This document shows, piece after piece, positions 17,242 to 41,630 of a stretch of DNA of 64,000 bases (the first letter of the stretch is position 1; the number at the start of each line of letters is the position of its first letter). A program made the translations under genes and the position numbers. The notes under the pieces are model-generated. The model did no database searches and was not told the DNA's origin. It saw only the letters and a program-made list of their open reading frames with translations. Where the stretch lies: NCBI GenBank assembly GCA_045593165.1, contig JAZNWF010000035.1, positions 10,078-74,077 of the forward strand, given 5' to 3'. The stretch is from Eubacteriales bacterium (GTDB lineage: Bacteria > Bacillota > Clostridia > Oscillospirales > CAG-382).

Positions 17242-20200
17242 TTATCCCAATGGTAATTCCAGCTTATGCTCGCCGTCGGGGACAGTCAGGGGAAACGACA
17301 CGGGTTCACCGTCAAGCGTTGGCGATTTCACATTTTCCGATGCGGAAACAGAAAGCTTGGCGTTGATAAGACCTATTTCGGCGTCGAACGCGATTTTCGG
17401 CTCTGCGGACAGCAAGCTGTTACCTGCGCCGAGCTTCAAGCCGAGCACATTTTCGATCATTATCCGATAATACCAAGATGCCGCGCCCGTATACCAGCTC
17501 CAACCGCCGCGGCCTACGTGCTCGCCCGAATAAATATCCGCCGCGATTGCATACGGCTCGCATTTATACCTGCTTGCAAGCTCCTTATCGGCACAGCGCG
17601 ACGCGGGATTTGCGCAATCCAATATCAGCAACGCTTCCTCTGTTAACCCTGCCGACAGGCAACCGAGCGCACCCCAAAGCGCGCCGTGGGTATACTGCCC
17701 TCCGTTTTCGCGTATGCCCGCAACGTAGCCGCGGATATAGCCTACCCTTGCCCTGCCGTTTGCAAACGGAGGCGAAAACAGCTTGAATATTCTGTGTTTT
17801 CGGTCATAAAGCTTTGAAAACGCCGTAACAAGCGCGGTTTTTGAGCGTTCGGGGTTGATTTTTGCAAGCTCGGCAAAGGATTGCGAAAGAATATCGATTT
17901 TGCATTCCTCGCTCGATTCCACACCCAAAACCGTGCCGTCGTCGCATATTGCACGTGCATATCTGTCGCCGTAAAAAGCTATTTCATCAACCGTGCGACG
18001 CAGTTTTTCGGTGATTGCTCTATAATGCTCTGCCGCCTCGGTATCGCCGCGCGATTCCATTATCGGAGCAAAGCGTTCCGCCGCGATGATAAACAGCAGC
18101 GTCGAAAAAACGCTTTCGCCCAACCCCTTCTCGCCAACGAGCGAAAACGCATCGTTCCAATCGCAGCTGCCCATAAGGACAAGCCCGTTTCTGCCCAATT
18201 TCTCGGCGCAGGCAAGCGCGCGCAGACAATGCTTATACACCGATTCCTTTATATCGCTTCTTTGCGGCTGCTCGTACCGTTCACCCATTTCGCCCAACGG
18301 CGAAGATGTCATATAATAGGTTTCGGTATCAAGCAGGCTGTCATCGCCTGTTTTTTGCAAATAATCGGCGGTCACTATCGGCAGGTACAATAAATCGTCA
18401 GAGCATTTGCTTTTTATGCCCCTGTTTACGCTGTCGAAATTGCGTGTATGCCACCAATGCATAACGCTTCCGTCTGTATATTGATGCGCACAGCAACGGA
18501 TTATATGCGTCCGCACCTTATGAGGCATCGAATAAACAAGCGTTAACGAATCCTGCAGTTGATCGCGGAAGCCATACGCGCCGCCGCTTTGATAAAACGA
18601 GCCCCTTGCGAAGAATCTGCAGGCGGCAACTTGATAAGGCAGAAAAAAGTTCATCAAAGCATTGTTCGCGTTGCTTCGCGTATTTACTCTTATATTCGGA
18701 ACAAGCGATTCGGCAAAGCCCCGCGCCTCCGAAACGCAGGATTCAAAAAAGTGTTTATTTATACGCGAAGCAATATTCAGCGCACCCGATTCGGTTGCAC
18801 ACGCACCGATAAAAAACAGAATATCGTTGCCCGCGGCGAAAAGACGTGTTTTGCCTACGTCCGCCCTGCCCGAAGCCACGCCCGCAAAGCCATACCCCTC
18901 GGGGTATGTCATACCGAATATATTTTTGAACAGAAAGCCGACGCTTCCGTTTTCCGAAAAGCCTGCCGATTCTATTCTGTTCGAGCCATATACGGTATCG
19001 CCCATAACCGCCTCCAACGAAAATACCGTTTCGGGAGTCATCTGCTTATCGTATTCCACACGTATAAGCTTTACGGGAAATTTTGGATGCACGGTTACCG
19101 TAACGCGATACTCGTTACCCTCGATATTGCCGTAATACGAAGCAGAGCCCTTTTCGTAGCATACCCTCGAGGAGCAGGCGCAAAGATCGTATTTTTTGTC
19201 ATTTGACAGCACAAATATCCGCTCACCGTCGTCAAGCGTCTTCGGGTCGCCGTAGAATGAGCAAAGCCTTCGTTCACGTGCGTTATCGAAAAAGGTATAA
19301 CCAAGACTGCTTTGCGTTACGACTGTTGAAAACCTATGCCCCGTCAGCACGAACGAATAAGGCGCACCCGGCAGACTGCTTTTATCCACCACAAATCCGT
19401 CGGTGATAAAATAGCCGTTTTTCGATGAAAGCGCGCCCTCGGGAACAATAAGACGCGACGCATTCTGCACGGAAGCAACCGTTTTTAAAAGCGAGATCTC
19501 ATCCGCGCCCGAGCAGTGCTCGGCATCGTTCGAAAAATCCATATAAAAGCTTGCACAGCTTTTTAAGGCACGCGCAAGAGTATCGCCGATATCGCCCTGC
19601 CGCAACAGAAATATACCGCCGCTTCTGCCGATATATTGCAGACATTTCAGTTCTGCACAGCAGTTCCTTACAGCCGTTTCGACAGGACGGTTATATCCGT
19701 CGGTATCGTTGATTATGAATATAAGCTCGCAACGGATGCACGCTCTTGCAAGGGTCAAAAATGCGTTTATTGCAGATCTCGTTCTCGAAACCGATTTTTC
19801 GGATGCCGATATCACCGCCAACGGATAATCGCCCGATATACGTCGGCTCCAAAGCTCGCCTATATCGCAGGAATCAAGCTCGGTCAGCGTACTTTTTTCT
19901 CTACCGTAAAGCAGATCAGACAGCATTTTATCGAATATTTCGCCGCCCGCAGCCGAATCGCCCTCCGACTTGTCCGCACGTGCAAGTCGGATATTTTTTT
20001 CGCATTCGTCTTTTGTTTCTCCGCAGGTTATCAGAAACGTTGCCCTGCCGCCCTCTGCTCCGTTACAGCGGACAAGACAAAGCGGATCTATGCACGCGCC
20101 GACGCGGTTATCGGCTTCACAGCCTGCATAATCAAACGGTGAAACGATCGAGCTTGCGGCAAAGCATTCCCTATCGGTGCGGAACGAAAACGCCATATCT

Positions 20201-23200
20201 TTATCGCGCGGTGCAACAGCCAAGGTATATACATGACTGCCGTCGCGTCCGCTTCTGCGGTGAAAATAGAGTATCCGCTTGTTGCGGTCATATTCGCTTT
20301 CTATAAACAGCTTTGAGAACGAAATATGCGAAAGATATTTCTTTTTCTGCTCCAAAACGGGCTCGAACGCAAGCGTGATATCGTATTTCTTCATCGACTC
20401 GGCGCGAGTGTTTATTATAAAGCAATTACTGCATTTCGACATACTGTAGCGTACTCGTCCCGAAAAGTCCTTGTCCGATGCTATATGCGCCGCAAAGCCG
20501 TTTCCTCGCTCGAAGCTGTAATTGCCGTGGCCGTAAAGGCTTGCACAGCCGAAATGCCTGCTTCCTCTCGTAAACGTGACCAACGGCGAAAAGCGCAGAG
20601 AATACCTTTTATATTCGGTATGCGATATCATACGGTCACCGCAGGATAAGCCTATATGCCCGTTGCCCGAAACCACCGCCGTAAGATCGCCCCTCGTAAG
20701 AAGCATCACCTTGGGCGACGAGAGGTCTATGCGCTCGGTGTGATCGTTACGGACACGGCTTATTCGACGTTCGTTAAGCTGAGCATCGCATTGATCCTCA
20801 AAGATATGCGCGTCTATGGGTATCTTTTCGCAAAGAAGCTCTCTTGCGGAATTCATCTGCCTATCTGCCATAAAGCGCTTTACGAAAATATTATCCCTTA
20901 CGGCATTCATACAGGCGATAATGCTCATTCCGACGTGATGCGCCATATAGCTTTTTACGCAGATACCGCCCGAGCCGTTATTCATATCCAACGCCTCGTA
21001 AAGCCCGTATTTTCCGTACATTCCGCGGTTTTCGAGGCTGTTCAGATTCTTGATCGCCGAGCCGCCGCAAACACAAAGCGAAAGATAGGTCGAGTAGGGC
21101 GAAACGGTCTGCTCGTTATCCGAAATTCGCCTTAACGCAAGCGTTTGTATGCCGTTTGCCTTGTACTGATAGTTCATATCGCTGTCGAACGAATAAAACC
21201 CGCTTTCGCTTATTCCCCACGGCGAGCATTTCGAGCGTTGTATCATTATGGCAAACGCAACGCTTTCGAACACGAACGAATCGCGGTACAGCGGCAAAAA
21301 CAGCTGTGGCATAAGATATTCGAACGCCGTGCCCGACCAGCTTTTCATTCCGATATAGCCCGATTTGTGAGTAAGCGTTCTGCCCAACGATTGCCAATGC
21401 TTTTTCGGGACCTTATTGGAAGCGACGGCGTAATAAGCGGTCATACGAGCCTCGCTCATAAGCATATCGTAGCAGCTGTTGTCGAGTCTGCCGTCGTCCG
21501 CGCGCATACCTATACGGAAAAGCTCACGTTTTTTATCGTAAAACACGTTCAAGTCGGTGGCTTCTATCAGCAATTCGACCCTCACTGCGATTCCCTTTAA
21601 TCGCGAATCGATATCCTCGTATTCGCGCAGTCCCTCCTTTAACGCGACAAGCATTACCACGAAATTACCGCTATCCACAGCGGAAACGTAATGCTCGCCG
21701 AGCACGCTTAAATCGTTCAGGTCGTACCAATTGAAAAGGTTGCCTTTGTATTTAGGCAGACGATCGATAGTAAGAAGCGTATTGCTCATACGAGAATATA
21801 GCTCGTCCTTATCGAGAACACCCATATCGTGCGCGGCAAGGAGCGACACGAGGTAGAATCCGATATTCGTAGGCGAGGTCCTCATCGCCTTTGCGTATAC
21901 CGGCGACAGCTGAATGTTATCGGGCGGAAGGTGGTGCGTTTCCTCGTTTACGTTGTCGTAATAAAACCCGAACATATCCTTGGCGTGAACAAGCAGCATT
22001 TTCTTCTGCTTTTCGGTAAGCGTCGGTCTTGCCTCATATCCGCCGTCGATACGCCTTGAAAGCACCGCGGAAACAAGCGGATACACGAAATACAAAAGCC
22101 CCGCAAGCCGCATAAACGGTGTTCTCGCAAGAGCAAGCATAGAAAAGCCTATAATAACCGAGCTTGCCCCGTCGAGCACGTATTTGCCGAGCGTTGACGA
22201 AAGTCTTTCCGCCTGCGCGGCGGTAGTCCATTCGAGCGTCTTTTTGCGAGTGACCATTCGTACTGCCGAAAGCGAAAATGCATTTACCGTAAGCACCGCC
22301 TTACGCGCGGTGGCGCACAGCTCGAAAAATACGCGTATAAGCGTTTGCGTAAGCATCGTATACGCCTTTGAAAAGAAGCGCATACAGGCAAACGGCGAGC
22401 GCGAAAGCAAAAACCGCGTCACAGAAAACACGCAGGGTATCAAAAACTCGGAATAGGCAAGCAGAAACACCCAAATACCGCTGTTTTCGGTCAGAAAACA
22501 GCCCCAAACGATTGCAGAAAACGACATCACGGGCGATAAATGTCTTAAGACCGTAAGAGCGAGTCGCAGCTTTGAAAACGCTCCGAGCAATTCTCGTCCC
22601 AAGAAATACAGATTTTGAAAATCGCCTCTCAGCCATCTATGCTGTCGGCGGTAATAGGACACGGTATTTCCCGGCGTGGAGTCGGTAAGCGTTATATCCG
22701 ATGCGCTGAGGGTACGAAGCACGCTTCCCTCCACCACGTCGTGACTTAAAACCGTTCCCTCGGGTATCCTATTATTTAAAAGATCATAAAAAAGTCCGAC
22801 GTTTATTAGTCCCTTACCGCAGAAATTTCCCGAACCGAAAAGCGATTGCGAGCGTTGAAATGACGCGTTTGCATAGGAATCCGCGCCGCCCGCGCCCGAA
22901 ACAAGCCGTGAAAAGCCCGTACGGTACGCGCTTGTCAGCTCGGTACGCACGGCAGGCTGGATTATACCGTAGCCCGAAACCGCTCTGCCGTTTTCCGTCG
23001 CCGGCTTATTTGCCGGATGGAGCGCAACGGACAGCAGTTCCGTAACACTTCCGACCGAAAGATTGGTGTCGGAATCGAGAGTAAGAAGATATTTTATATC
23101 GCGGATAAATTCTCCGCCGTAATATTCACTCTTATCGCCGTTGACCATATGCGAAACCAATTCACACACGGCGCCGCGCTTTCTTTCCCACCCACCGTAT

Positions 23201-24297
23201 TTATCCTCGCTTTTATTAAGCACTCTTTCGCGGAAAAACAGGCAAAATCGCTCGCCGTGAACAGCGTTCAGCTCGTCTATGCGTCTGCGTGCGGATTCGA
23301 TTATGTCGCTGTCGTTCACGTGGTATTGAGTGCTCGAATCGGGCAGGTCGGCAAGCAGACAAAAATATATATTATCGTCGGGATTCATATACCGAAATCG
23401 CGAAAGTGACTCGAAAACGGCGTTATCGTGTTCGTTTCCCGACATAAGAGAGGCGACGGCGACGAGCGTTTTCGCATCGTCGGGAACGGCATCAAGCAAA
23501 AGACGCGGAGCGTTGTACGCAGGCGCAAAGAAGGAAATTATCTGGTCGGATATCGCTGCTGCCGTTACGCCGAACGGAATCAAAAGCAGAAAGGTCATCC
23601 GGCCAACCGTTAAAGCAGAAAGCGCAGACAACGATAAAAACAGTATCAAAGCAATACATATCCACGCAAAAGCGTATTTTTTCTTCGGGGCAAATAACAG
23701 CTTTCCCAAAGGAACGCCCCTGCTTTTTGCCTCGGCAATAAGCGTTTTTGCCGTTTCGTATTCGTTATCGCCGTTTGCCCGCTCGGATATAATTCTGCGA
23801 TATTGATGCTTTGTTGCCGGATCGTTACGTGCATACTCGGGCTCGTTGGCATCCAACAGCCGCTCGGGTCTCCACACGGCAGGAATAATATCGGCGTAAT
23901 CGGGGTCGCTTATGGCGATAAGCATCCGCACGGATGACGCGATAAGCTGCTTTCCGCCGATTTCCGAAAGCGAATCGGATATCCTGATTATCGCACAGGC
24001 TGAAAGCAGATCGTTTAACGAGCTTAATTCCGAATAGGTATATTCCCTGCCCGTCGACAAAAGATATTTTGTAAGCGATGCCGTATCGGGCTCGTAATCG
24101 CGCGATTCGCAATATTTACGTATCGTTTCGTAAAGCGCGTTATGGCGCAACGCCCTTTTATTTCTTTTTAATCTTCGGTAATGGCGGTCGATAATATAAA
24201 AATTATCCCGAAGCCACTCCGAAGCATCGCGCGAGGAAAGCGCGTGACGTATCATCGAATATGAGCGTTTTAGTTTTACGCGTAATGAAATAGCCAT
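17242..24297 (-). CDS. Cyclic beta-1,2-glucan synthase-like multidomain protein (NdvB/Cgs: GT84 + central transglycosylase domain + GH94 phosphorylase)
   Basis: GWERKRG, TLDSDT, GKGL, LSHD..EG, RRQHRWLRGD, then TM helices; PPDN, TSPTNIG, SWSGTAFEYLMP, WGISES; YQSGGAYGFRDQLQD, DWND, ENGGQYTHG, GGWSWYTG. Confidence 0.88.
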   Translation of the reverse strand: MAISLRVKLKRSYSMIRHALSSRDASEWLRDNFYIIDRHYRRLKRNKRALRHNALYETIRKYCESRDYEPDTASLTKYLLSTGREYTYSELSSLNDLLSACAIIRISDSLSEIGGKQLIASSVRMLIAISDPDYADIIPAVWRPERLLDANEPEYARNDPATKHQYRRIISERANGDNEYETAKTLIAEAKSRGVPLGKLLFAPKKKYAFAWICIALILFLSLSALSALTVGRMTFLLLIPFGVTAAAISDQIISFFAPAYNAPRLLLDAVPDDAKTLVAVASLMSGNEHDNAVFESLSRFRYMNPDDNIYFCLLADLPDSSTQYHVNDSDIIESARRRIDELNAVHGERFCLFFRERVLNKSEDKYGGWERKRGAVCELVSHMVNGDKSEYYGGEFIRDIKYLLTLDSDTNLSVGSVTELLSVALHPANKPATENGRAVSGYGIIQPAVRTELTSAYRTGFSRLVSGAGGADSYANASFQRSQSLFGSGNFCGKGLINVGLFYDLLNNRIPEGTVLSHDVVEGSVLRTLSASDITLTDSTPGNTVSYYRRQHRWLRGDFQNLYFLGRELLGAFSKLRLALTVLRHLSPVMSFSAIVWGCFLTENSGIWVFLLAYSEFLIPCVFSVTRFLLSRSPFACMRFFSKAYTMLTQTLIRVFFELCATARKAVLTVNAFSLSAVRMVTRKKTLEWTTAAQAERLSSTLGKYVLDGASSVIIGFSMLALARTPFMRLAGLLYFVYPLVSAVLSRRIDGGYEARPTLTEKQKKMLLVHAKDMFGFYYDNVNEETHHLPPDNIQLSPVYAKAMRTSPTNIGFYLVSLLAAHDMGVLDKDELYSRMSNTLLTIDRLPKYKGNLFNWYDLNDLSVLGEHYVSAVDSGNFVVMLVALKEGLREYEDIDSRLKGIAVRVELLIEATDLNVFYDKKRELFRIGMRADDGRLDNSCYDMLMSEARMTAYYAVASNKVPKKHWQSLGRTLTHKSGYIGMKSWSGTAFEYLMPQLFLPLYRDSFVFESVAFAIMIQRSKCSPWGISESGFYSFDSDMNYQYKANGIQTLALRRISDNEQTVSPYSTYLSLCVCGGSAIKNLNSLENRGMYGKYGLYEALDMNNGSGGICVKSYMAHHVGMSIIACMNAVRDNIFVKRFMADRQMNSARELLCEKIPIDAHIFEDQCDAQLNERRISRVRNDHTERIDLSSPKVMLLTRGDLTAVVSGNGHIGLSCGDRMISHTEYKRYSLRFSPLVTFTRGSRHFGCASLYGHGNYSFERGNGFAAHIASDKDFSGRVRYSMSKCSNCFIINTRAESMKKYDITLAFEPVLEQKKKYLSHISFSKLFIESEYDRNKRILYFHRRSGRDGSHVYTLAVAPRDKDMAFSFRTDRECFAASSIVSPFDYAGCEADNRVGACIDPLCLVRCNGAEGGRATFLITCGETKDECEKNIRLARADKSEGDSAAGGEIFDKMLSDLLYGREKSTLTELDSCDIGELWSRRISGDYPLAVISASEKSVSRTRSAINAFLTLARACIRCELIFIINDTDGYNRPVETAVRNCCAELKCLQYIGRSGGIFLLRQGDIGDTLARALKSCASFYMDFSNDAEHCSGADEISLLKTVASVQNASRLIVPEGALSSKNGYFITDGFVVDKSSLPGAPYSFVLTGHRFSTVVTQSSLGYTFFDNARERRLCSFYGDPKTLDDGERIFVLSNDKKYDLCACSSRVCYEKGSASYYGNIEGNEYRVTVTVHPKFPVKLIRVEYDKQMTPETVFSLEAVMGDTVYGSNRIESAGFSENGSVGFLFKNIFGMTYPEGYGFAGVASGRADVGKTRLFAAGNDILFFIGACATESGALNIASRINKHFFESCVSEARGFAESLVPNIRVNTRSNANNALMNFFLPYQVAACRFFARGSFYQSGGAYGFRDQLQDSLTLVYSMPHKVRTHIIRCCAHQYTDGSVMHWWHTRNFDSVNRGIKSKCSDDLLYLPIVTADYLQKTGDDSLLDTETYYMTSSPLGEMGERYEQPQRSDIKESVYKHCLRALACAEKLGRNGLVLMGSCDWNDAFSLVGEKGLGESVFSTLLFIIAAERFAPIMESRGDTEAAEHYRAITEKLRRTVDEIAFYGDRYARAICDDGTVLGVESSEECKIDILSQSFAELAKINPERSKTALVTAFSKLYDRKHRIFKLFSPPFANGRARVGYIRGYVAGIRENGGQYTHGALWGALGCLSAGLTEEALLILDCANPASRCADKELASRYKCEPYAIAADIYSGEHVGRGGWSWYTGAASWYYRIMIENVLGLKLGAGNSLLSAEPKIAFDAEIGLINAKLSVSASENVKSPTLDGEPVSFPLTVPDGEHKLELPLG

Positions 24298-24412: not shown

Positions 24413-25093
24413 ATGTGCGAAAACAGCGAAAACGGATGCGCTTTGGAAAACGGAGAGGCTTATAACGGAAGCGTGACCACAAGCGTAAACGGAATATGCA
24501 TTCATTCATTGGTCATAGCAGGTCAGATAGAGGGGCATTTTGCAGCGTCACCGCAAACAAAATCGACAAAATACGAGCATTGTATACCTACGCTCGTGGC
24601 GGTAGAGGAAAACGACGAGATCGACGGTCTGTTATTGCTTTTAAACACTATCGGAGGAGATATCGAGGCAGGGCTTGCAATAGCCGAGCTTATAGCAGGT
24701 ATGACGAAGCCGACGGTTTCGCTTGTGCTCGGAGGCGGACATTCGATAGGTGTACCCTTGGCGGTATCGGCAAAAAAATCGTTTATCGTGCCGAGCGCAA
24801 CGATGACGCTTCATCCCGTGCGATTGAACGGGCTTGTAATAGGCGTCCCGCAAACCTTTGCCAACCTTGATAAAATGCAGGAAAGAATAATCGAATTCAT
24901 CGTCCGCAATTCAAGCACCGACAGCAACACGATACGCAGGCTTATGACGGCAACCGACGATATGACGACCGACATCGGAACTGTAATCGACGGACGCGAG
25001 GCGGTGGAATACGGAATAATCGACCGTGTCGGCGGCTTGGGTGATGCCGTTTCGGAATTAAAAAGAATGATAAACGAAGCAAGGACAAAATAA
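24413..25093 (+). CDS. tepA: ClpP-family protein TepA/YmfB
   Basis: IAGQIEGH, KSTKYEH, LNTIGGDIEAGLAIAE, GGGHSIGVP, LHPVR; RBS gaggtgg before ATG 24413. Confidence 0.85.
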   Translation: MCENSENGCALENGEAYNGSVTTSVNGICIHSLVIAGQIEGHFAASPQTKSTKYEHCIPTLVAVEENDEIDGLLLLLNTIGGDIEAGLAIAELIAGMTKPTVSLVLGGGHSIGVPLAVSAKKSFIVPSATMTLHPVRLNGLVIGVPQTFANLDKMQERIIEFIVRNSSTDSNTIRRLMTATDDMTTDIGTVIDGREAVEYGIIDRVGGLGDAVSELKRMINEARTK

Positions 25094-25133
25094 AAGTGCA
25101 GTTGTAGTGAGACTTCCGTATGGGAAGTCTCAC

Positions 25134-25343
25134 AGTTTTATTCGCCGCATTACATTTGGCGAGTTATATTGCTTCGCAGTTTTATTATGCTTTTTTGCCC
25201 CGCGAAAGACGCTTTCGCGGGGACTCATCGCATAGTGCTATTCGGCTACGCCGAGTTTGGCGAATAAAATAACACTGAAGCCATAGGCTTCAATACCACT
25301 GTCGCTTGCGACAATATCACTCCGACGAGGTCGGAATATAACT
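25134..25343. repeat. Nonamer/mini-hairpin array (4x AGTKNTATT + hairpin, then 4x AATAHMACT separated by hairpins)
   Basis: Nonamers at 25134, 25162, 25178, 25234; complementary nonamers at 25268, 25292, 25313, 25335. Confidence 0.85.
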
Positions 25344-25371
25344 TGAATAATATCTTCTGTTGTGTTATTAT
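25343..25371 (+). promoter_or_regulatory. sigmaA promoter carried by element copy 1
   Basis: TTGAAT-N17-TATTAT with extended TG; same position in copy 2. Confidence 0.75.
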
Positions 25372-25477
25372 AAAAAGGGTAAGGCTTAGCCCAATAAAGT
25401 ATTTGTACTTACAAATGCGATGCCGGCTCTTCTTGAACTGTTTGATAGATAAGAATTTGACTTACGAGGACGATTGT

Positions 25478-25918
25478 ATGAAAAAGACAATTATTATTTC
25501 TGCAGTTATTGTGATTGCATTATTATTGGTTGGTTTTGTTGTGTCTATCCCGATTATGAATGACCGCTCGGCAAAGAAAGTTGAAAAACAACTTGTGGAA
25601 GTTCCTCTGCCCGACAACACAGAAATGATCGAATCTCTATCCAAGGCAGGCAAGCTTGTTGGTAATGGCAACGGAATGCAGTATTTCGGTGCTATACTTA
25701 TCAAAAGCGAAAAAACACTTGATGAGTTATCCACCTACTATTCGCACAAACTTACAAATGCAGTTGTAAAAGAACAAAAATCACAGACAATTGAGTGTGT
25801 CGAACACGAAATCATTTCCTTTGATACTAACATCGCAGAAACCGACAATTACTTTATCGTTTATTTGTTTGGTAACGGAATTTCTCCTTTTTCAGATTTA
25901 GATATTCGTGGGCATTAA
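25478..25918 (+). CDS. Hypothetical exported/membrane-anchored protein (cargo of element copy 1)
   Basis: ATG at 25478 after gagga; N-terminal TM helix; visibly more AT-rich than its neighbours. Confidence 0.75.
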   Translation: MKKTIIISAVIVIALLLVGFVVSIPIMNDRSAKKVEKQLVEVPLPDNTEMIESLSKAGKLVGNGNGMQYFGAILIKSEKTLDELSTYYSHKLTNAVVKEQKSQTIECVEHEIISFDTNIAETDNYFIVYLFGNGISPFSDLDIRGH

Positions 25919-26069
25919 ATATCCATAGGCATAGAATATGTTTTGCATTGTTTTAGGCTTACCAATTCCAATTTGTTGTACAGAAAAACCCGACAACTTT
26001 TAGAGTCTGTCGGGTTTTTAATATCCTTATGAGATGTATCCTTAACAACTGCACTTTTGCTATTCGTCT

Positions 26070-27215
26070 TTAAGGCTTTTTGATGGTGTCCTTAATGCTG
26101 TCATAAATATATCCCGCATATACCTCATAGGTTTCGTCCTTCGGGTGCAAGCCGTCGGTAAATACCTCGGAATGCTCCTTGGACCAATCGAAAAGGTCTA
26201 TCGTAGGATATCCGTAATCGTTTGCGATCTGCTTAAGAAGCGGATGCGAATGCCTTACTATATTTGCAGTCCAAGCCTCTGCGCCCCATTGGTCGCCCGC
26301 AACCGCAAACAGCGACGAGGGCAGGCAGATATATATCTGGCAATCGGGGTTTGCCGCCTTGAAGGAATCGAGCAAGGCTTTTGTACTTTGGATAAATTTG
26401 TTTTCACGGTCGTTTGCCGCATTATCCCAATTTTTATAGGGCTGTGTGGGTGTGGGGTTTGCGTCGTTAGTACCGAGATTGAAAATCACGACGTCAGCCT
26501 TCAACGCCTTTGCATCGGCATATTGCTGACTCTTGCAATATGCATATTCGTCGGTGCTGACGATAGAATATCCGCTAAGACCCGCGTTAAGCACGTAGTA
26601 TTCCAAGCCGAGCATATTCTGTAAATAGTTAGGATAAGTCTTTTCGCGGTCATCGGAATTTATTCCCTGCGTAATGCTGTCGCCGACACACGCAACCTTA
26701 ATAACGTTCGCCTCGCCGCGCTTTTCGCAGTTTGCGAAAACACCGTCCTTGGATTCTTCGATCATATTGATTAGCTCCTTATAGCCTGCATAGCATCCCG
26801 TTGCATAAGACGACGCGATAACCACCGCATTTTCCTTTATGGCGATCTTATATCCTCCGAAGCCGTAATCGGACAACATATCCGCACAAGCCTCGCGGCG
26901 CGCGGTCGAGCCGAATATTATCTCGTTGCCCTTTTGCGGAACAAGGTCGGAGCGGTAATCGAGCTCGAAGCCGAAATTGCTCTTTACGTACTCGATAAAT
27001 TCAAGCGCAACGGTTTTGAACTGTGCCGATTCGGAGGTGCTTTTGTAAACCACCGTGAATTCAGAAAGATCTATTCCGTTTATAACAGGTTTTTTCGGGG
27101 GCGCCTTGGACTCCTCAACCGATTCGGTCCGGCTTTCGGCATTATCGGTTTCGGCACACGAAGCAACAGAAACAAGCATTAATGCCACAAGCAAAAAACA
27201 TAAAATTCGTTTCAT
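26070..27215 (-). CDS. SGNH/GDSL hydrolase lipoprotein
   Basis: Start MKRILC at 27215 after AGAGGT; lipobox VAS-C; VGDSITQG, NAGLSG, LGTND, DGLHP. Confidence 0.85.
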   Translation of the reverse strand: MKRILCFLLVALMLVSVASCAETDNAESRTESVEESKAPPKKPVINGIDLSEFTVVYKSTSESAQFKTVALEFIEYVKSNFGFELDYRSDLVPQKGNEIIFGSTARREACADMLSDYGFGGYKIAIKENAVVIASSYATGCYAGYKELINMIEESKDGVFANCEKRGEANVIKVACVGDSITQGINSDDREKTYPNYLQNMLGLEYYVLNAGLSGYSIVSTDEYAYCKSQQYADAKALKADVVIFNLGTNDANPTPTQPYKNWDNAANDRENKFIQSTKALLDSFKAANPDCQIYICLPSSLFAVAGDQWGAEAWTANIVRHSHPLLKQIANDYGYPTIDLFDWSKEHSEVFTDGLHPKDETYEVYAGYIYDSIKDTIKKP

Positions 27216-27228
27216 AACAATACCTCTT

Positions 27229-27373
27229 AGCCGAAGCATTGAAGCTTGAACCAGCCCGAAAGGACTGAACCGCAATGCTTTTCGTAAAATTTTAATTTAT
27301 CGTCTTTGCAATACACAGCCGAAGCATTGGAGCTTGAACCTGCCCAAAAGGACTGAAACGAAATGCTTCGGCT
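27229..27373. repeat. Two tandem ~55-nt structured repeats upstream of the GDSL gene
   Basis: agccgaagcattgRagcttgaaccWgcccRaaaggactgaaMcgMaatgctt at 27229 and 27317. Confidence 0.85.
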
Positions 27374-36058: not shown

Positions 36059-38986
36059 ATGCAGGACAACAGCAACAATATTCCCGAAAACGAAGAAAAC
36101 GAAAGCCGTTTCGAGCCCGAAAGCACAAACGAAACGGAAATAAACAACGGCGCCGAAAGCACAGAGGAAGCCTCTTCTTCGAGATTCGACGATCCGAGCC
36201 TGTTTGCAAACGTGTCGGATAACGATGCCGATATGGCATATATAGAGGACGAAAGAGCAACCACGCGCGATTTCGAGCCGGCAACACCCTGCACGGAATC
36301 CGACGGAAAAACGCGTTGCTTCGACACGCTTGAAAGCACAAGTGCCGCCGAAAAGGAAGAAAAGACAAAAAAATCCATTCCTTTCGGCAAATCTAAAACC
36401 GCACGCGCGGCAAAATCCACCGCCTCGGGTATCGGATTCGTGATAACCAAGGCATTGGGATATTTGTTAAATATCCTGCTTACCGTTTTGGTCGTAGGAC
36501 TTATAACGGGTACTGTCGTTGCGCTCGCCTTCGTTATTTATATTAACAACTACGTCGATATGGAATTCAACGAGCTCGAAGACCTCAAATTCGATTCCGC
36601 ACAATCGACGATGATGTATTATGTTGATGAGGCAGGCAACGAGGTGTTGCTCGAGGAGGATACGCTCCACAGCAGTGAAAACAGACTTTGGGCAGACTAC
36701 AAGGACATTCCGCAACAGCTCATCGACGCGTATATTGCAGTTGAAGACCAGCGTTTTCTTGAGCACGACGGCGTAGACTTCACTCGTACCGCGTCCGCAA
36801 TATACAACTTCTTTATCCCCACAAGCTCAAGCTACGGCGGCGGCTCGACCATAACACAGCAGCTGATAAAAAACGTAACCGGCGAAAATGAGGCTACTAT
36901 TCAGCGTAAGGTGCAGGAAATATTCCGCGCATTCGACGTTGAAAAGAAATATACAAAAGAAGAGATACTCGAAATGTATCTCAACACAATATACCTTTCG
37001 CACAATTCGTACGGTGTACGCGTTGCGGCCGATACCTACTTCGGCAAGGAGCTTTCCGACCTGACGCTTACCGAATGTGCGGCTATCGCCTCGATAGGCA
37101 AATGGCCCACGCACTACGACCCGATATCCAACCCGCAGAACAATCTTACCCGACGCAATCTTGTATTGAAGCTGATGCTCGAGCAGGGCAAGATAACTCA
37201 GGAGGAATTCGATCAGGCATACGATACGCCGCTTGTTCTTGCTACGGGTGACGAATCCGAAACAACCTACACCGAAAACGTCCATTCCTATTATATAGAT
37301 GCAGTAATGGATGACGTTATAGCCGACCTTATGTCCACCTACGGATATACCGAGGTCGAAGCATCACGTATGCTCTTCTCGGGCGGTCTTGAAATAGTGA
37401 CCTGCCTTGACCCCGGAATTCAAAGCTGTGTCGAAAAGGTATATACCGATTCGAGCTATTGGCCCGAAACCGAGGGCATGCAGGCGCAATCGGCAATCTG
37501 TATACTCGACCCCAACAACGGCGACCTTTTGGCGATCGTCGGCGGTCTTGGTGAAAAGCGCGAAAGCAGAGGGCTGAACCGCGCTACCCATTCCAAGCGT
37601 CAGTGCGGCTCTTCCATAAAGCCGATATCCATATATGCGCTCGCGCTTGAGGAGGGATATATTACGGGTGCTTCGGGCGTTGACGACGTTCCTCCCGTAT
37701 ATTATGAAAGCTCCAATTCCTATTGGCCCAAGAACTCGGGCGGCAGATATCGCGGTATGGTTTCTCTTGACTATGCGATACAGGCATCGCTCAACACGAT
37801 CGTTGTAGACCTCTGCAACGAAATGGGCGTGGATAGGGTATTCAACAATATGGTCGACTACGGCTATACCACGCTTATAAGCAACAAAAAGCTTGCAAAC
37901 GGAAGCGTGGTTTCGGATATTAACGTAGCACCTCTCGCACTCGGCGGTCTTACCTACGGTGTAACCGTACGCGAGCACACTCAGGCATATGCGACCTTTG
38001 CAAACGGCGGTGTTTCGGTTAAGGCACGCACCTATTCGGTAGTCCGCGACAGCTCGGGCAAGACCATTCTCGACAACACTCCGCAGCAGAAGGCAAAATA
38101 CAGCGAGGACACCGCTGCAATAATGACCGAGCTCCTCACCCACGTTGTTACGGGCGCAAGCGGTACTGCTCACGGCTCGATAAAATTCCAGCGCAATTAC
38201 GGCGTTGAGGTTGCGGGCAAAACCGGTACGACCAACGACAAAAAGGACGTTTACTTCTCGGGCTATACTCCCGATTTCGTTGCTTGCTGTTGGTACGGCT
38301 ACGATAACAACAAGGTCATCACCACCTCGGGCAACTGCGCCGCAAAGCTTTGGAACAGCGTATTCAATGAAATATATGCATACCTTGCAGAAAACGAAAT
38401 TCCCTACACCAAAACCTTTGAGGTTCCCACCTCGGTTCAGGAAATCGAGGTTTGTATGATATCGGGTAAGCTTCCCACTGAAGCCTGCCGACTTGACCTT
38501 TGCACAGGGGCAGACGGAAGCTGTGTAGGCACGGTAACCGTCCGCAAGGCAGATATCCCGACAGAATACTGTGATATTCACATTATGGCAAAGCAGTGCG
38601 TTGCAAGCGGTGCACTCTGCTTCGACGGACACAACAGCTGTCCCGACACGGTGGACGTATCGTTGAGAAGAATAACCACCTCGGACCGTGCGCTTTATGC
38701 AAACGTAAGAGTAACCGACGCGGAATTTCTTTATATGGATATCCCCGAGGGTTATGTTTTCCCGACCGATCCTATGATGCCGTTCTTCCAGAACGCGCTT
38801 CCCGAAGGTATAACGTTCGGCTTCACAAGCGGCTCGACCCCTCCTGTTAACCGCGTTTGTCAGACACATATCATCCCCACGCTCGGTCCTTCGTTCCCGA
38901 CAGATCCTAATCAACCCGTTGACCCAAATCAGCCGACCGACCCCGCGTTACCCGTAGAGCCCGATGACCCGACGGTAACACCTTAA
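36059..38986 (+). CDS. Class A penicillin-binding protein (PBP1A family)
   Basis: EDQRF.EH.G, GGSTITQQL, RK.QE; SxxK (SSIK), SLN, KTGT; Cys-rich and Pro-rich C-terminus. Confidence 0.93.
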   Translation: MQDNSNNIPENEENESRFEPESTNETEINNGAESTEEASSSRFDDPSLFANVSDNDADMAYIEDERATTRDFEPATPCTESDGKTRCFDTLESTSAAEKEEKTKKSIPFGKSKTARAAKSTASGIGFVITKALGYLLNILLTVLVVGLITGTVVALAFVIYINNYVDMEFNELEDLKFDSAQSTMMYYVDEAGNEVLLEEDTLHSSENRLWADYKDIPQQLIDAYIAVEDQRFLEHDGVDFTRTASAIYNFFIPTSSSYGGGSTITQQLIKNVTGENEATIQRKVQEIFRAFDVEKKYTKEEILEMYLNTIYLSHNSYGVRVAADTYFGKELSDLTLTECAAIASIGKWPTHYDPISNPQNNLTRRNLVLKLMLEQGKITQEEFDQAYDTPLVLATGDESETTYTENVHSYYIDAVMDDVIADLMSTYGYTEVEASRMLFSGGLEIVTCLDPGIQSCVEKVYTDSSYWPETEGMQAQSAICILDPNNGDLLAIVGGLGEKRESRGLNRATHSKRQCGSSIKPISIYALALEEGYITGASGVDDVPPVYYESSNSYWPKNSGGRYRGMVSLDYAIQASLNTIVVDLCNEMGVDRVFNNMVDYGYTTLISNKKLANGSVVSDINVAPLALGGLTYGVTVREHTQAYATFANGGVSVKARTYSVVRDSSGKTILDNTPQQKAKYSEDTAAIMTELLTHVVTGASGTAHGSIKFQRNYGVEVAGKTGTTNDKKDVYFSGYTPDFVACCWYGYDNNKVITTSGNCAAKLWNSVFNEIYAYLAENEIPYTKTFEVPTSVQEIEVCMISGKLPTEACRLDLCTGADGSCVGTVTVRKADIPTEYCDIHIMAKQCVASGALCFDGHNSCPDTVDVSLRRITTSDRALYANVRVTDAEFLYMDIPEGYVFPTDPMMPFFQNALPEGITFGFTSGSTPPVNRVCQTHIIPTLGPSFPTDPNQPVDPNQPTDPALPVEPDDPTVTP

Positions 38987-39033
38987 AACAAAAAAGGAAC
39001 TGTTTGCGAGACTTCCCAAAACGGAAGTCTCGC

Positions 39034-39208
39034 AGTTTTATTCGCCAAAAACATTTGGCGAGTGATATTGCTTCGCAGTTTTATTATGCTTCGCATAGTG
39101 GTATTCGGCTACGCCGAGTTTGGCGAATAAAATAACACTGAAACCTTAAGGTTTCAATATCACTATTGCTTTGCAATAATATCACTCCGACGAAGTCGGA
39201 ATAAAACT
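39034..39208. repeat. Nonamer/mini-hairpin array, copy 2
   Basis: Nonamers at 39034, 39061, 39077, 39097; complementary nonamers at 39131, 39156, 39178, 39200. Confidence 0.85.
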
Positions 39209-39236
39209 TGAATAATATAAACTGTTATGATAAAAT
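39208..39236 (+). promoter_or_regulatory. sigmaA promoter carried by element copy 2
   Basis: TTGAAT-N17-TAAAAT with extended TG. Confidence 0.75.
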
Positions 39237-39331
39237 GGGTTTGGGCATAACCCAATAACGCTGTTGTGAAGACAAATGCGATGTTGGTACTAAAACAGCT
39301 TGATAAACAAGAATTTGATGGAGATGTAAAT

Positions 39332-39658
39332 ATGAAAATCGGTATTACGGATTATGAAGATTACTTGTATGACCATTACAAGAGCCACGGTATTGACAGC
39401 AGTTTGTTTATGAAATTGGTTGAAGAAGTAGGCGAAGTGGCTGAGGTTCTAAACAAACGGGACGGAAGAAAGGCTTCTGATAGTGAAGATCTGAAATCGC
39501 AGTTAGCCAATGAGCTGGCGGATGTTATTCATTATGCTTTCGCGATTGCATCATTAAATCAAATCGATTTGAATGATGTTATTTTAGAGAAGGACAAAAT
39601 AGCCTCCATAAAGTACCATCACGAAAGAAATCTTGAGCAGTTTATGGAAGCAAGATAA
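39332..39658 (+). CDS. MazG-like nucleotide pyrophosphohydrolase (cargo of element copy 2)
   Basis: ATG at 39332 after ggag; KLVEEVGEVAE...ELADV all-alpha NTP-PPase motif; AT-rich. Confidence 0.85.
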   Translation: MKIGITDYEDYLYDHYKSHGIDSSLFMKLVEEVGEVAEVLNKRDGRKASDSEDLKSQLANELADVIHYAFAIASLNQIDLNDVILEKDKIASIKYHHERNLEQFMEAR

Positions 39659-39755
39659 ACTATATTTTTCTAACAGAAAAACCCGACGGACTTTGTAAAT
39701 CCGTCGGGTTTTTAATATACTCATGAGAACCTCTCGCAAGCAGTTCCTTTTCTTT

Positions 39756-41630
39756 TTACTTTCTTTTGGGTTTTCTTTTATTATTGCCTTGCTTTTTATC
39801 TGTCGGCTTTTGCTTTTTGCGGAAATCGCCCTTATTATCAAAGCGCTTCGGCGGTTCGGGCCGCACAAGGCAATCCTTGCCAAAGCCGATAAGGTCTTCC
39901 CTTCCTGCCTTTATCAACGCCTTACGCACAAGGTGTGCGTTTGCGGGGCGGGCGAACTGAAGCAAAGCGCGTTGCATCTGCTTTTCTCCGTAATCGCGCG
40001 CAACGTAAACGTCCTTACCCGTGGCAGGGTCGATGCCCGTATAGAACATACAGGTCGAAGCGGTGCCGGGCGTGGGATAAAAATCCTGAACCTGCTCGGG
40101 ATTGAGATTATTCTTCTTTAAATACAGCGCGAGCTCTATTGCCGATTCGAGCGTACTGCCGGGGTGCGAGGATATAAGATAGGGTACGATGTACTGCTCC
40201 TTGCCCGCTTCCTTGGTAAGCTGTGCAAAGCGTGATTTAAATTTATCGTATTCCTCGATAGGCGGCTTGCCCATTAACGCAAGCACGTCGTTACAGCAAT
40301 GCTCGGGCGCGACCTTCAGATGACCGCTGACGTGGTCGTTTACTAATTTGCGGAAGAATTTCGGGTTTTTATCGGCAAGAATATAATCGTATCTCAAGCC
40401 CGAACGGATAAACACCTTTTTAACCTTGGGAACAGCCTCGACCGCCTTAAGCAAATCGATATATTCGCTGTGGTCGACGTGCATATTCTTGCACACAGTG
40501 GGCGTTAAGCAGTTTTTGCCCTTGCAGACGCCAAGCTTTTTCGCTTTTTCACATCCGTTCGTGCGGAAATTCGCGCTCGGGCCGCCGACGTCGTGGATAT
40601 AGCCCTTGAATTCGGGCATAGCCGCAATCGTTTCCGCCTCGGCAACGCAGGATTCAATAGAGCGCGAGGTAACGGTTCTGCCCTGATGGAACGCGATCGA
40701 GCAGAAGCTGCAGCCGCCGAAGCAGCCGCGGTTATGGGTTATCGAGAATTTAACCTCCTCGATACCGGGAATACCGCCGAGCTTTTCGTAGCTCGGGTGG
40801 TAGGTGCGCATATACGGAAGCGAATAGACGGCGTCGAGCTCCTTGCGGGTAAGCGGCGGCATAGGCGGATTCTGAACAAGCACCTTTTCGCCGTAGCCCT
40901 CACATATCGCCTTGCCGTATACGTGGTCTTGATTGTCGGATTGTATTTTAAACGCTTTTGCGAATGCGCGCTTATCGGTTTTTATATCATCAAATTCACC
41001 GCAGGAAACGTGTTCGAAATGCGGGGTAAACTCGCGCGATTCCAAAAAGCAGGTGCCGCGCACGTCGCGTATCTTCTTTATCGGAACACCCTTATCGAGC
41101 AGGAACGCGATACGTCTTAAAATATTTTCGCCCATACCGTAGGTGAGCATATCTGCGCGCGAATCGACAAGAACGCTTCTTCTTACCGAATCGCTCCAAT
41201 AATCGTAATGAGCAAATCGTCTTGTAGATGCTTCAAGACCGCCCAACACTATCGGCACGTCGCCGTACGCCTCGCGGATGCGGTTACAATATACTATAAC
41301 TGCCCTGTCGGGACGGTATCCGATCTTTCCTCCGGGGGAATAATAATCGTCGTTACGGCGTTTTTTGGACGCGGTATAGTGTGCGACCATCGAATCGATA
41401 TTTCCCGAATTGACTAAAAATGCCAAACGAGGTCGACCGAAACGCATAAAATCCTGCTTGCTTTTATAATCGGGCTGAGGTATAATTGCAACAGAATATC
41501 CCTCCGCCTCAAGCACTCGGGAGATTATTGCCGTGCCGAACGAGGGGTGGTCAACATATGCATCGCCCGTGACGATTATAAAATCGGGCGTATATTCAAT
41601 TTCATTTGGATATATAGGTAAGAACGGCAT
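39756..41630 (-). CDS. ygiQ: YgiQ family radical SAM protein
   Basis: GDAYVDHPSFG, GLEAS.RR.AHYDYW, RGCFGGCSFC, VAPEH, QVQDFYPTP. Confidence 0.92.
   Translation of the reverse strand: MPFLPIYPNEIEYTPDFIIVTGDAYVDHPSFGTAIISRVLEAEGYSVAIIPQPDYKSKQDFMRFGRPRLAFLVNSGNIDSMVAHYTASKKRRNDDYYSPGGKIGYRPDRAVIVYCNRIREAYGDVPIVLGGLEASTRRFAHYDYWSDSVRRSVLVDSRADMLTYGMGENILRRIAFLLDKGVPIKKIRDVRGTCFLESREFTPHFEHVSCGEFDDIKTDKRAFAKAFKIQSDNQDHVYGKAICEGYGEKVLVQNPPMPPLTRKELDAVYSLPYMRTYHPSYEKLGGIPGIEEVKFSITHNRGCFGGCSFCSIAFHQGRTVTSRSIESCVAEAETIAAMPEFKGYIHDVGGPSANFRTNGCEKAKKLGVCKGKNCLTPTVCKNMHVDHSEYIDLLKAVEAVPKVKKVFIRSGLRYDYILADKNPKFFRKLVNDHVSGHLKVAPEHCCNDVLALMGKPPIEEYDKFKSRFAQLTKEAGKEQYIVPYLISSHPGSTLESAIELALYLKKNNLNPEQVQDFYPTPGTASTCMFYTGIDPATGKDVYVARDYGEKQMQRALLQFARPANAHLVRKALIKAGREDLIGFGKDCLVRPEPPKRFDNKGDFRKKQKPTDKKQGNNKRKPKRK

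Follow-up and report, generated by a model that had tools for sequence, protein, structure and literature searches.

What is the symmetrical array of short repeated words and small hairpins at 39034-39208 in the genome of an Eubacteriales bacterium of the order Oscillospirales, and does it act as DNA or as RNA? The array lies in a stretch of 64,000 nucleotides (nt) of contig JAZNWF010000035.1 (hereafter the window; G000:C35:10078-74077 in our genome set), and a second copy occurs in the same window at 25134-25343. The G000 assembly comprises 1.71 Mb and is 73.6% complete. The array is the constant core of a mobile cassette that is inserted in the loops of host terminators, and it is kept by selection on pairing. 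As to its mode of action, we tentatively favour, among several explanations, a folded-DNA recognition scaffold for a trans-acting protein, probably of family PF05635 (23S_rRNA_IVP).

An earlier note on this DNA had described four AGTKNTATT units and four complementary units with hairpins between them, ending on a -35 box, and both sites are indeed built in this way. In the window, AGTKNTATT has 19 matches against 3.93 expected (maximum of 100 shuffles, 9), and 16 of these 19 fall within the two arrays. The plan is identical in both: four words on the plus strand are followed by four on the minus strand, and a mini-hairpin fills each gap between words. The parts of the arrays are as follows.

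39034 to 39105, plus strand: left half of the array, with the words AGTTTTATT, AGTGATATT, AGTTTTATT and AGTGGTATT in this order; plus-strand words at 39034, 39061, 39077 and 39097.
39043 to 39060, 39070 to 39076 and 39086 to 39096, plus strand: left-half hairpins h1, h2 and h3.
39106 to 39116, plus strand: hairpin h4, cggc-tac-gccg, whose loop is GTA on the minus strand; three of its four pairs have changed on both sides.
39117 to 39133, plus strand: centre piece AGTTT-GGCGAATAAAAT, of which 39122 to 39133 is the 3' strand of the long-range helix P0.
39131 to 39208, plus strand: right half of the array, with AATAACACT, AATATCACT, AATATCACT and AATAAAACT in this order; minus-strand words at 39131, 39156, 39178 and 39200.
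39140 to 39155, 39165 to 39177 and 39187 to 39199, plus strand: right-half hairpins h5, h6 and h7, with GNA/GNRA loops on the plus strand.
25134 to 25343, plus strand: second array of four plus four words, in the other cassette.

The stem changes that had been quoted as keeping the pairing between the two copies are present, namely gaaacc/ggtttc versus gaagcc/ggcttc in h5 and attgc/gcaat versus gtcgc/gcgac in h6. In the copy at 25134, h3 (25187-25233) is 47 nt long; its atgc/gcat base is kept, with a palindrome of 25 nt (25198-25222) inside it.

The h1 and h3 loops of some other copies also contain palindromes, 25-39 nt long and of the type ccccgcgaaag...ctttcgcgggg, for instance in both hairpins of the copy at G000 C17:22220 and in contigs of run X4 at 39046-39052 and 39091/39092. 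Together with the one at 25198-25222, they look like a second, even smaller insert that likewise lands in hairpin loops.

Covariation was evaluated in a larger set of relatives. Of 145 parsed arrays, 80 have exactly the 4+4 form, and 66 distinct ones among these do not exceed 200 nt. Three rows were dropped (one of 196 nt, one of 190 nt and one locus present in both orientations) and the window copy at 39034 was added, giving an alignment of 64 arrays. RNAalifold placed 45 pairs, which make up hairpins h2-h7 and a long-range helix of 12 base pairs (bp), and 27 of these pairs have changed on both sides. Paired cells account for 97.0% of the total against 79.2% after shuffling, cells changed on both sides number 454 against 132.6, and the covariation score is 0.421 against 0.105; the observed values were reached by none of 500 shuffles. 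As a control, sliding the partner by one to three columns lowered pairing to 33-52%. In h5-h7, 17 of the 18 pairs have changed on both sides. The stems are highly diverse in the 80 arrays, with 58 distinct sequences for h5, 57 for h6, 44 each for h7 and h1 and 41 for h3. The covariation glimpsed between two copies is thus strong in the larger alignment.

The long-range helix P0 joins 39035-39046 to 39122-39133 and closes the left half; its strands are word 1 plus CGCC and GGCG plus AATAAAAT, and 99.3% of its cells are paired. Among 124 distinct arrays, position 5 of word 1 and the W of GGCGAATAW form 81 T-A, 42 A-T and one G-T pair, with no mismatch. Two other subfamilies in G000 keep a long-range complement in other letters (TAAGTGTGCC/GGCACACTTA and TTTGTGTCCG/CGGACACAAA, each 72 nt apart). 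When an automatic search for such a helix was run on the six G000 arrays that precede PF05635 genes, exact 10-nt complements were returned in two (C48 and C29); in the remaining four only the repeated word itself was picked. The long-range helix and hairpin h1 compete for one 5' arm.

The pairing of left with right words into a ladder of four-way junctions was considered and rejected. At the variable fourth and fifth letters, nested word pairs match in 12%, 24%, 41% and 45% of the 66 distinct arrays, which does not exceed the non-nested pairs or the shuffles (p 0.81, 0.69, 0.06 and 0.11). Because nested pairs match no better than shuffles, the words look like repeats of one consensus rather than strands of a helix; those closest to the consensus are the right-half words. 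The branched structure that had been proposed earlier therefore found no position-specific complementarity between left and right words to rest on.

The mobile context of the array, which the earlier note had also put forward, is borne out by comparison of relatives. The locus between the penicillin-binding-protein gene at 36059-38986 and the next gene (39756-41630, minus strand) was compared across 61 genomes of the genus, and 14 loci were read. In G048 and G060, a single A-tract/hairpin/T-tract terminator marks an empty site where the window has 738 bp; several other genomes have a glyoxalase-type gene at this locus instead. In G064, a gene-less relative of 0.3 kb with AGTTATGAT words is located inside the loop of a terminator that is intact in G002. 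Both window cassettes are flanked by the two arms of a split host terminator, 738 bp apart around the copy at 39034 and 939 bp apart around the copy at 25134. The array was also correctly placed upstream of the promoter, as a terminator-like hairpin precedes it and a promoter-like site follows it. The features of the two cassettes are listed below.

38990 to 39002, plus strand: left arm of the host terminator, aaaaaaggaactg, split off by the cassette and complementary to 39741-39751.
39006 to 39033, plus strand: left terminal hairpin, which is the left inverted repeat and is terminator-like, with word 1 as its T tract.
39208 to 39236, plus strand: promoter-like site TTGAAT-17-TAAAAT with TG, in which the first base of the -35 box is also the final base of the array's last word.
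39237 to 39331, plus strand: conserved leader from promoter to passenger gene (gggtttgggcat.acccaa ... acaaatgcgatg), direct repeat D6 between the two cassettes.
39332 to 39658, plus strand: passenger gene for a small MazG-type nucleotide pyrophosphohydrolase of 108 amino acids (aa); Pfam MazG, 33.8 bits, cut-off 22.
39677 to 39713, either strand: two-way terminator of the cassette, aaaaacccgac...gtcgggttttt, kept in three G000 cassettes.
39719 to 39739, plus strand: right terminal inverted repeat actcatgagaacctctcgcaa, whose reverse complement begins ttgcgaga, like the left end.
39741 to 39751, plus strand: right arm of the split host terminator, cagttcctttt, complementary to 38990-39002.
25092 to 25105, plus strand: other cassette, left arm of the split host terminator, aaaagtgcagttgt, a perfect complement of 26045-26058.
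25107 to 25133, plus strand: other cassette, left terminal hairpin, terminator-like.
25343 to 25371, plus strand: other cassette, promoter-like site TTGAAT-17-TATTAT with TG.
25478 to 25918, plus strand: other cassette, passenger gene for a 146-aa protein with a hydrophobic N-terminus and without a Pfam family.
25984 to 26044, plus strand: other cassette, its own terminator (25984-26019) and right terminal repeat (26025-26044).
26045 to 26058, plus strand: other cassette, right arm of the split host terminator, acaactgcactttt.

The ends of the window cassette read ttgcgaga... on the left and ...tctcgcaa on the right. A terminator-like site was called at 39004-39035, and the same hairpin heads most G000 copies; its core CTTCTCATAAGGAAG (CTTC..GGAAG) recurs inverted at right ends, and the right-end core CCTTATGAGAAG is present in sister copies. 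The overlap of the last word with the -35 box is likewise found in many relatives. In 60 further loci read with flanks of 1.6 kb, A-tract/T-tract host arms surround the element in at least 13, and inverted repeats were seen in four more. Two size classes can be told apart: gene-less elements measure 312-396 nt and consist of hardly more than the array and the ends, and those with a gene measure 782-1430 nt. Many copies are preceded by tRNA genes. Insertion junctions lie in T-rich loops, where a 2-nt TT duplication would fit C74 and G064. Because a two-way terminator is carried before the right end, the cassette replaces the termination signal that it splits. Terminal inverted repeats, together with filled and empty sites in relatives, are features of miniature inverted-repeat transposable elements (MITEs) and other non-autonomous elements.

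The leader of about 95 nt deserves a separate remark. It is also found at 25372-25477 and in the copies at G000 C17:90490, L061 and L084 (gggtttgggcat.acccaa ... tttgta.ttacaaatgcgatgctggttct), and in some copies it is followed by a terminator rather than a gene. It might represent a small RNA or an independent regulatory leader; no convincing Rfam match was obtained for it.

The array family is widespread and multi-copy. A genome-wide scan of G000 for the word gave 194 matches and 13 clusters of five to nine words, in all of which plus words precede minus words; two further copies are degenerate. A 319-nt query matched 17 of 41 sampled genomes (G000 included), with up to 28 matches per genome, many of them at contig ends; matches came from 11 of 24 genomes of the same genus and 5 of 16 from other families of the order. 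The centre pattern GGCGAATAWAATAWCACT occurs in at least 122 stretches of public genomes, nearly all of them gut or rumen metagenome-assembled genomes (Acutalibacteraceae, Oscillospiraceae, Ruminococcus, Eubacteriales, Clostridia), while two or three in other phyla are chance matches. In contigs of four runs, the summed depth over the array was 300-600 against about 6 in the flanks, showing that the array is multi-copy and breaks assemblies; no contig of these runs spanned the empty-site junction. In addition, relatives with other words exist, such as AGTTATGAT/ATCATAAC in L172 (G064:C87) and AATGATGTT in L072 and L215.

Among the genes carried by these elements, those of PF05635 are the only recurrent ones. 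Other genomes gave 30 downstream open reading frames (ORFs) of 70 aa or more; six belong to PF05635 and start 46-47 nt past the array, and the remaining ones are diverse (HTH_3, GNAT, DUF4830, zinc ribbon) or plainly host genes. In G000, all six PF05635 genes (C20:12609, C48:406, C17:63466, C29:9389, C45:7501 and C17:67466) follow a mirror hairpin array, each with its own word: ATGAAG/CTTCAT (twice), GTGAAG/CTTCAC, GAATTG/CAATTC, ACATCGTT/AACGATGT and TCGATAT/ATATCGA. Four of them are located just past tRNA terminators, and the copy in C45 has an in-frame TAG. Furthermore, a clade of PF05635 proteins that accompanies the AGTGATATT word and shares 75-79% identity with the L199 protein adjoins arrays in G010 (two copies), G008 and G027. 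The link between PF05635 and the arrays, as drawn from this gene neighbourhood, is suggestive, not proven. A literature search returned no title or abstract that connects PF05635 with hairpin arrays. A structure of a PF05635 homologue, 2rld, has five chains, and the family is homologous to the accessory protein Avd of diversity-generating retroelements (DGRs), as stated in the part of PMC10053308 that treats it.

The explanation that we favour, with well under full confidence, is that the array may act as folded DNA, with hairpins extruded from either strand, and not as free RNA. The repeated word would be displayed between GC-clamped mini-hairpins with GNA or GNRA loops to a trans-acting protein, which would serve the spread or the upkeep of the cassette. 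The best candidate for this protein would be the Avd-like four-helix-bundle PF05635, because it is the only recurrent passenger of the family. The loops count among the DNA-like signals. Among 286 distinct hairpins, read on the strand that bears AATATCACT, GNA loops outnumber TNC loops 53 to 1 and GNRA loops outnumber TYNC loops 29 to 0, and the closing pair is C-G in 80 of the 82 GNA/GNRA cases. Because these loops stand on the AATATCACT-bearing strand, the favoured strand flips between the halves. The GNA loops pointed out earlier are accordingly strand-specific and C-G closed, but they are not all on one strand, since GC-GAA-GC and cggc-GTA-gccg of the left half are read on the minus strand and ccgac-GAA-gtcgg of the right half on the plus strand. 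The mirror layout would then equip each strand with a module, a word and its C-GNA-G hairpin, in the right orientation, and would work whichever strand is exposed. Hairpin h2 is GCTTCGC in 46 of the 80 arrays, that is, GCGAAGC on the other strand, a DNA mini-hairpin well known for its great stability. The two strands of the window copy each fold well as DNA (z values of -5.7 and -6.0; 0 of 200 shuffles).

A number of observations weigh against the folded-DNA scaffold and its proposed partner. The aligned arrays were picked by the centre pattern and the 4+4 parse, and changes shared among kin mean that the shuffle counts overstate independence. With an L199-type query, a cognate PF05635 gene was not found in G000 or G017, which are array-rich and about 73% complete; neither window cassette carries PF05635, and G012 has a 66%-identical PF05635 gene, yet an array match was not found there. 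No transposase was seen in the 30 downstream ORFs or between paired arrays. IS110 enzymes were found in none of the five array-bearing genomes searched, and RVT_1 was not found in G000 (73.6% complete) or in G008, G010 and G027 (97-98% complete). At the base of the hairpins, an invariant T-G pair can extend them on the AGTGATATT strand only (UG in 64 of 64 and 63 of 64); this strand is opposite to the GNA loops and is the one that Rfam models as RNA. GNRA loops are typical of RNAs as well, and it is energetically demanding to extrude stems of 4-6 bp from a DNA duplex. On the minus strand, a promoter-like site (39157 to 39129, TTGAAA-17-TATTTT with TG) points leftwards through the left half.

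As for the mobilising enzyme, a complete Y1 transposase (Y1_Tnp) was present in one of the five array-bearing genomes searched (G008 only), while RVT_1 is present in G026 and weak in G017. In addition, two facing arrays in G010 (L271, C13:1800-5200) bracket the gene for a secreted, membrane-anchored protein of 455 aa; the 1.8 kb between them hold this surface protein and no transposase.

Several of the points just gathered are those that an RNA would predict, and the catalogue of RNA families has a counterpart. At curated cut-offs, Rfam gave nothing in the window. At E-value reporting, 39033-39125 on the plus strand matches Gut-1 (RF01706) with 43.1 bits (E 2.4e-7; curated cut-off 50), and the match spans all 77 model positions with one hairpin treated as an insertion. 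The sister copy C4, 87% identical to the window copy, passes the cut-off with 58.6 bits, which places the repeat family as a whole in Gut-1. The two halves of copy L007 match on opposite strands (48.6 and 44.9 bits), and an array preceding a PF05635 gene scores 41.8 bits. The copy at 25134 reaches 24.7 bits only, because of the insert in h3. Other sub-threshold Rfam matches in the window (TD-1 with 28.5 bits, Phe leader) are noise, and a literature search for the 9-mers returned only primers and unrelated sites.

Gut-1 and the arrays share consecutive short hairpins, a constant G-U-G-A-n-A-U(U) linker, an origin in gut metagenomes and the lack of an assigned function. The catalogue model has 77 positions and three hairpins on one strand, whereas an array has four hairpins in its left half, which the right half mirrors, besides a long-range helix and a constant location in a mobile cassette. 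The array represents the Gut-1 motif in full, in a two-part, mirrored form. Members with a GUGAUAUU linker and a CAGUUAUAUUCGCC start are included in the portion of the Gut-1 seed alignment (PMC2864571, supplement file 5) compared here. In its Gut-1 entry, the original description lists the motif as 'RNA? Y', cis-regulatory n, human gut only, with 43 representatives (Weinberg et al., 2010, Genome Biol 11:R31, PMC2864571). The earlier note had named a match to a transcribed RNA family as evidence against its DNA reading: such a match exists, but in the Gut-1 passages of PMC2864571 the RNA status rests on covariation only, and no sequencing run recorded as RNA was found to contain this DNA. The sequence statistics of the arrays point to DNA at least as much as to RNA.

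It is possible, though we consider it the lesser prospect, that the array functions as a structured non-coding RNA. Transcription would either read through the left hairpin or start at an internal promoter, and the single-stranded words between the hairpins would bind or sequester a protein, such as PF05635, or direct RNA processing. The strong covariation, the rating of Gut-1 as RNA by Weinberg et al., the T-G pair that fits the AGTGATATT strand only and the frequency of C-G-closed GNRA loops in RNAs all agree with it. Transcription from the leftward promoter-like site would yield a left-half RNA with the GNA loops, and the competition of the long-range helix and h1 for one arm resembles RNA switches. 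Wobble argues the other way. Variable stem cells comprise 1867 Watson-Crick pairs, 23 G-T and 17 A-C on the plus strand and 62 others, and A-C on the plus strand would be G-T on the minus strand. The check for wobble and loop bias that had been suggested thus gave strongly strand-specific loops and wobble in about 1% of cells, without strand bias (23 versus 17) and likewise in each half. As the halves favour opposite loop strands, no single transcript has the favoured loop in both. Moreover, the array is placed after a T-tract terminator-like hairpin and before the -35 box. The internal promoter-like site is built from h5 and the centre, was not flagged in the copy at 25134, and its -35 stem covaries away in many relatives. 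A rightward promoter in the centre, TATAAT formed from GAATAT+AATATC, was noticed by eye and rejected as it has no usable -35 box.

It is doubtful that the array is a double-stranded operator field, in which eight regulator sites upstream of the cassette promoter would set the expression of the passenger, possibly by autoregulation through PF05635, and the hairpins would be incidental. Such a role would account for the contact of the last word with the -35 box, seen in the two window copies and in relatives alike, for a single word repeated in both orientations, for words that vary by subfamily, each with its own PF05635 gene, and for the closeness to consensus of the right-half words nearest to the promoter. 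Nevertheless, words may be as little as 7 or as much as 58 nt apart, even an h3 of 47 nt is accommodated and helical phasing is not kept. The free spacer length together with the kept stem base fits words joined by folding, not phased duplex sites. Binding to B-form DNA also leaves the 454 cells changed on both sides and the one-strand loop class unexplained, and the array is kept in gene-less elements of 312-396 nt. It is very improbable that the array has no function of its own and is the body of a selfish miniature transposable element with palindromes kept by hairpin-templated repair (quasi-palindrome correction) and not by selection: the multi-copy, patchy distribution (11 of 24 and 5 of 16 sampled genomes), the copies at contig ends with their high depth, the small palindromes inserted in array loops and the near-absence of wobble on both strands, which template-switch correction would give, are set against a 4+4 plan kept in 80 of 145 parsed arrays, a long-range helix that other subfamilies keep in other letters, a loop class chosen 53:1 and 29:0 on one strand and a promoter-adjacent position that is fixed across several Oscillospirales families.

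To return to the folded-DNA scaffold, the closest parallel is the hairpin of DGRs. In the sections on this hairpin, DGR homing is described as requiring a DNA hairpin or cruciform with free stem sequence and a strand-specific 5'-GRNA loop, and replacement of the loop GAAA by CTTT abolishes its function (Guo et al., 2011, PMC3240598). Judged by those sections, DGRs and arrays share GC-rich hairpins, a free stem, a 5'-GRNA-type loop on one strand and, suggestively and at the level of the array family as a whole, a link to a gene of the Avd family of four-helix bundles. A DGR has a single hairpin of 7-10 bp beside its variable repeat and depends on reverse transcriptase, whereas the arrays have seven or eight mirrored hairpins of 4-6 bp and RVT_1 was not found in G000 or in three near-complete array-rich genomes. 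DGR membership was set aside, as RVT_1 was not found in G000, G008, G010 and G027; template and variable repeats were not searched. The resemblance gives a lead on how a PF05635-type protein might read folded DNA.

Intervening sequences (IVSs) of 23S rRNA that encode S23p (PF05635) are also alike, being small selfish inserts in a stable hairpin loop with a PF05635 gene; they lie within rRNA helices and are excised from the RNA. One example is that of Coxiella (PMC4990558). By contrast, array cassettes occupy the terminator loops of protein and tRNA genes and carry a hairpin array, a promoter and terminators of their own. The window copies were rejected as 23S rRNA IVSs, as both lie between protein genes in terminator loops.

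Repetitive extragenic palindromic (REP) units and bacterial interspersed mosaic elements (BIMEs) with REP-associated tyrosine transposases (RAYTs), and MITEs such as Correia, are, like the arrays, multi-copy intergenic palindromes at gene ends; some have promoters or terminators and are believed to work in single-stranded hairpin form. REP units have one shared sequence, whereas the array hairpins all differ and only their pairing is kept. An assignment to REP/BIME was rejected because hairpin sequences differ at every position (41-58 distinct ones for h1, h3, h5, h6 and h7 in 80 arrays) and Y1 is inconsistent across genomes. The insertion sequences IS1397 and ISKpn1 target palindromic units, in whose loops they insert, and class C group II introns home after terminator hairpins, each with its own transposase or reverse transcriptase. 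The cassettes resemble them in that the target is a hairpin and not a sequence, but differ in that no transposase or reverse transcriptase gene was found in or near the cassettes. Likenesses to the omega-repressor heptad WATCACW, DnaA boxes, the lambda operator half-site, plasmid centromeres and integron attC were rejected as well, since at least 13 dispersed chromosomal copies and diverse passengers do not fit; they were set aside because none explains covarying hairpins.

A broader proposal, which we regard as unlikely though worth stating, is that mirror arrays and Avd-like PF05635 proteins would form a previously unrecognised class of mobile elements that home to hairpin loops without a conventional transposase. 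The word would be a programmable address read on folded DNA, one per subfamily; the S23p-encoding IVSs of 23S rRNA would belong to the same class, and Gut-1 would be a DNA element.

Other repeats were noticed in the window. Four direct repeats of about 300 nt, 78-100% alike, are located at 1944-3710, and a 15-nt tandem repeat at 1348-1422; both are probably inside a repetitive surface-protein gene. An ORF of 2351 aa occupies 17242-24297 on the minus strand. Near the start of the ORF at 26070-27275, a pair of direct repeats of 52 nt, with 90% likeness and separated by 88 nt, occupies 27229-27368.

Gut-1 has been in Rfam since 2010 without a function, and PF05635/S23p proteins are common, with solved structures (2rld) and no known role outside DGRs. 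With the mirrored array, the terminator-loop cassette and PF05635 as signature passenger, these two orphans would become one testable system with a named candidate partner. The case also serves as a warning that a catalogued 'RNA' may act as DNA. The cassette illustrates a polite insertion strategy, in which an element supplies a replacement for the terminator that it has split. The cassette also accounts for assembly breaks and for small accessory genes, such as those for the MazG-type enzyme and the small membrane protein, in the genomes of gut Oscillospirales.

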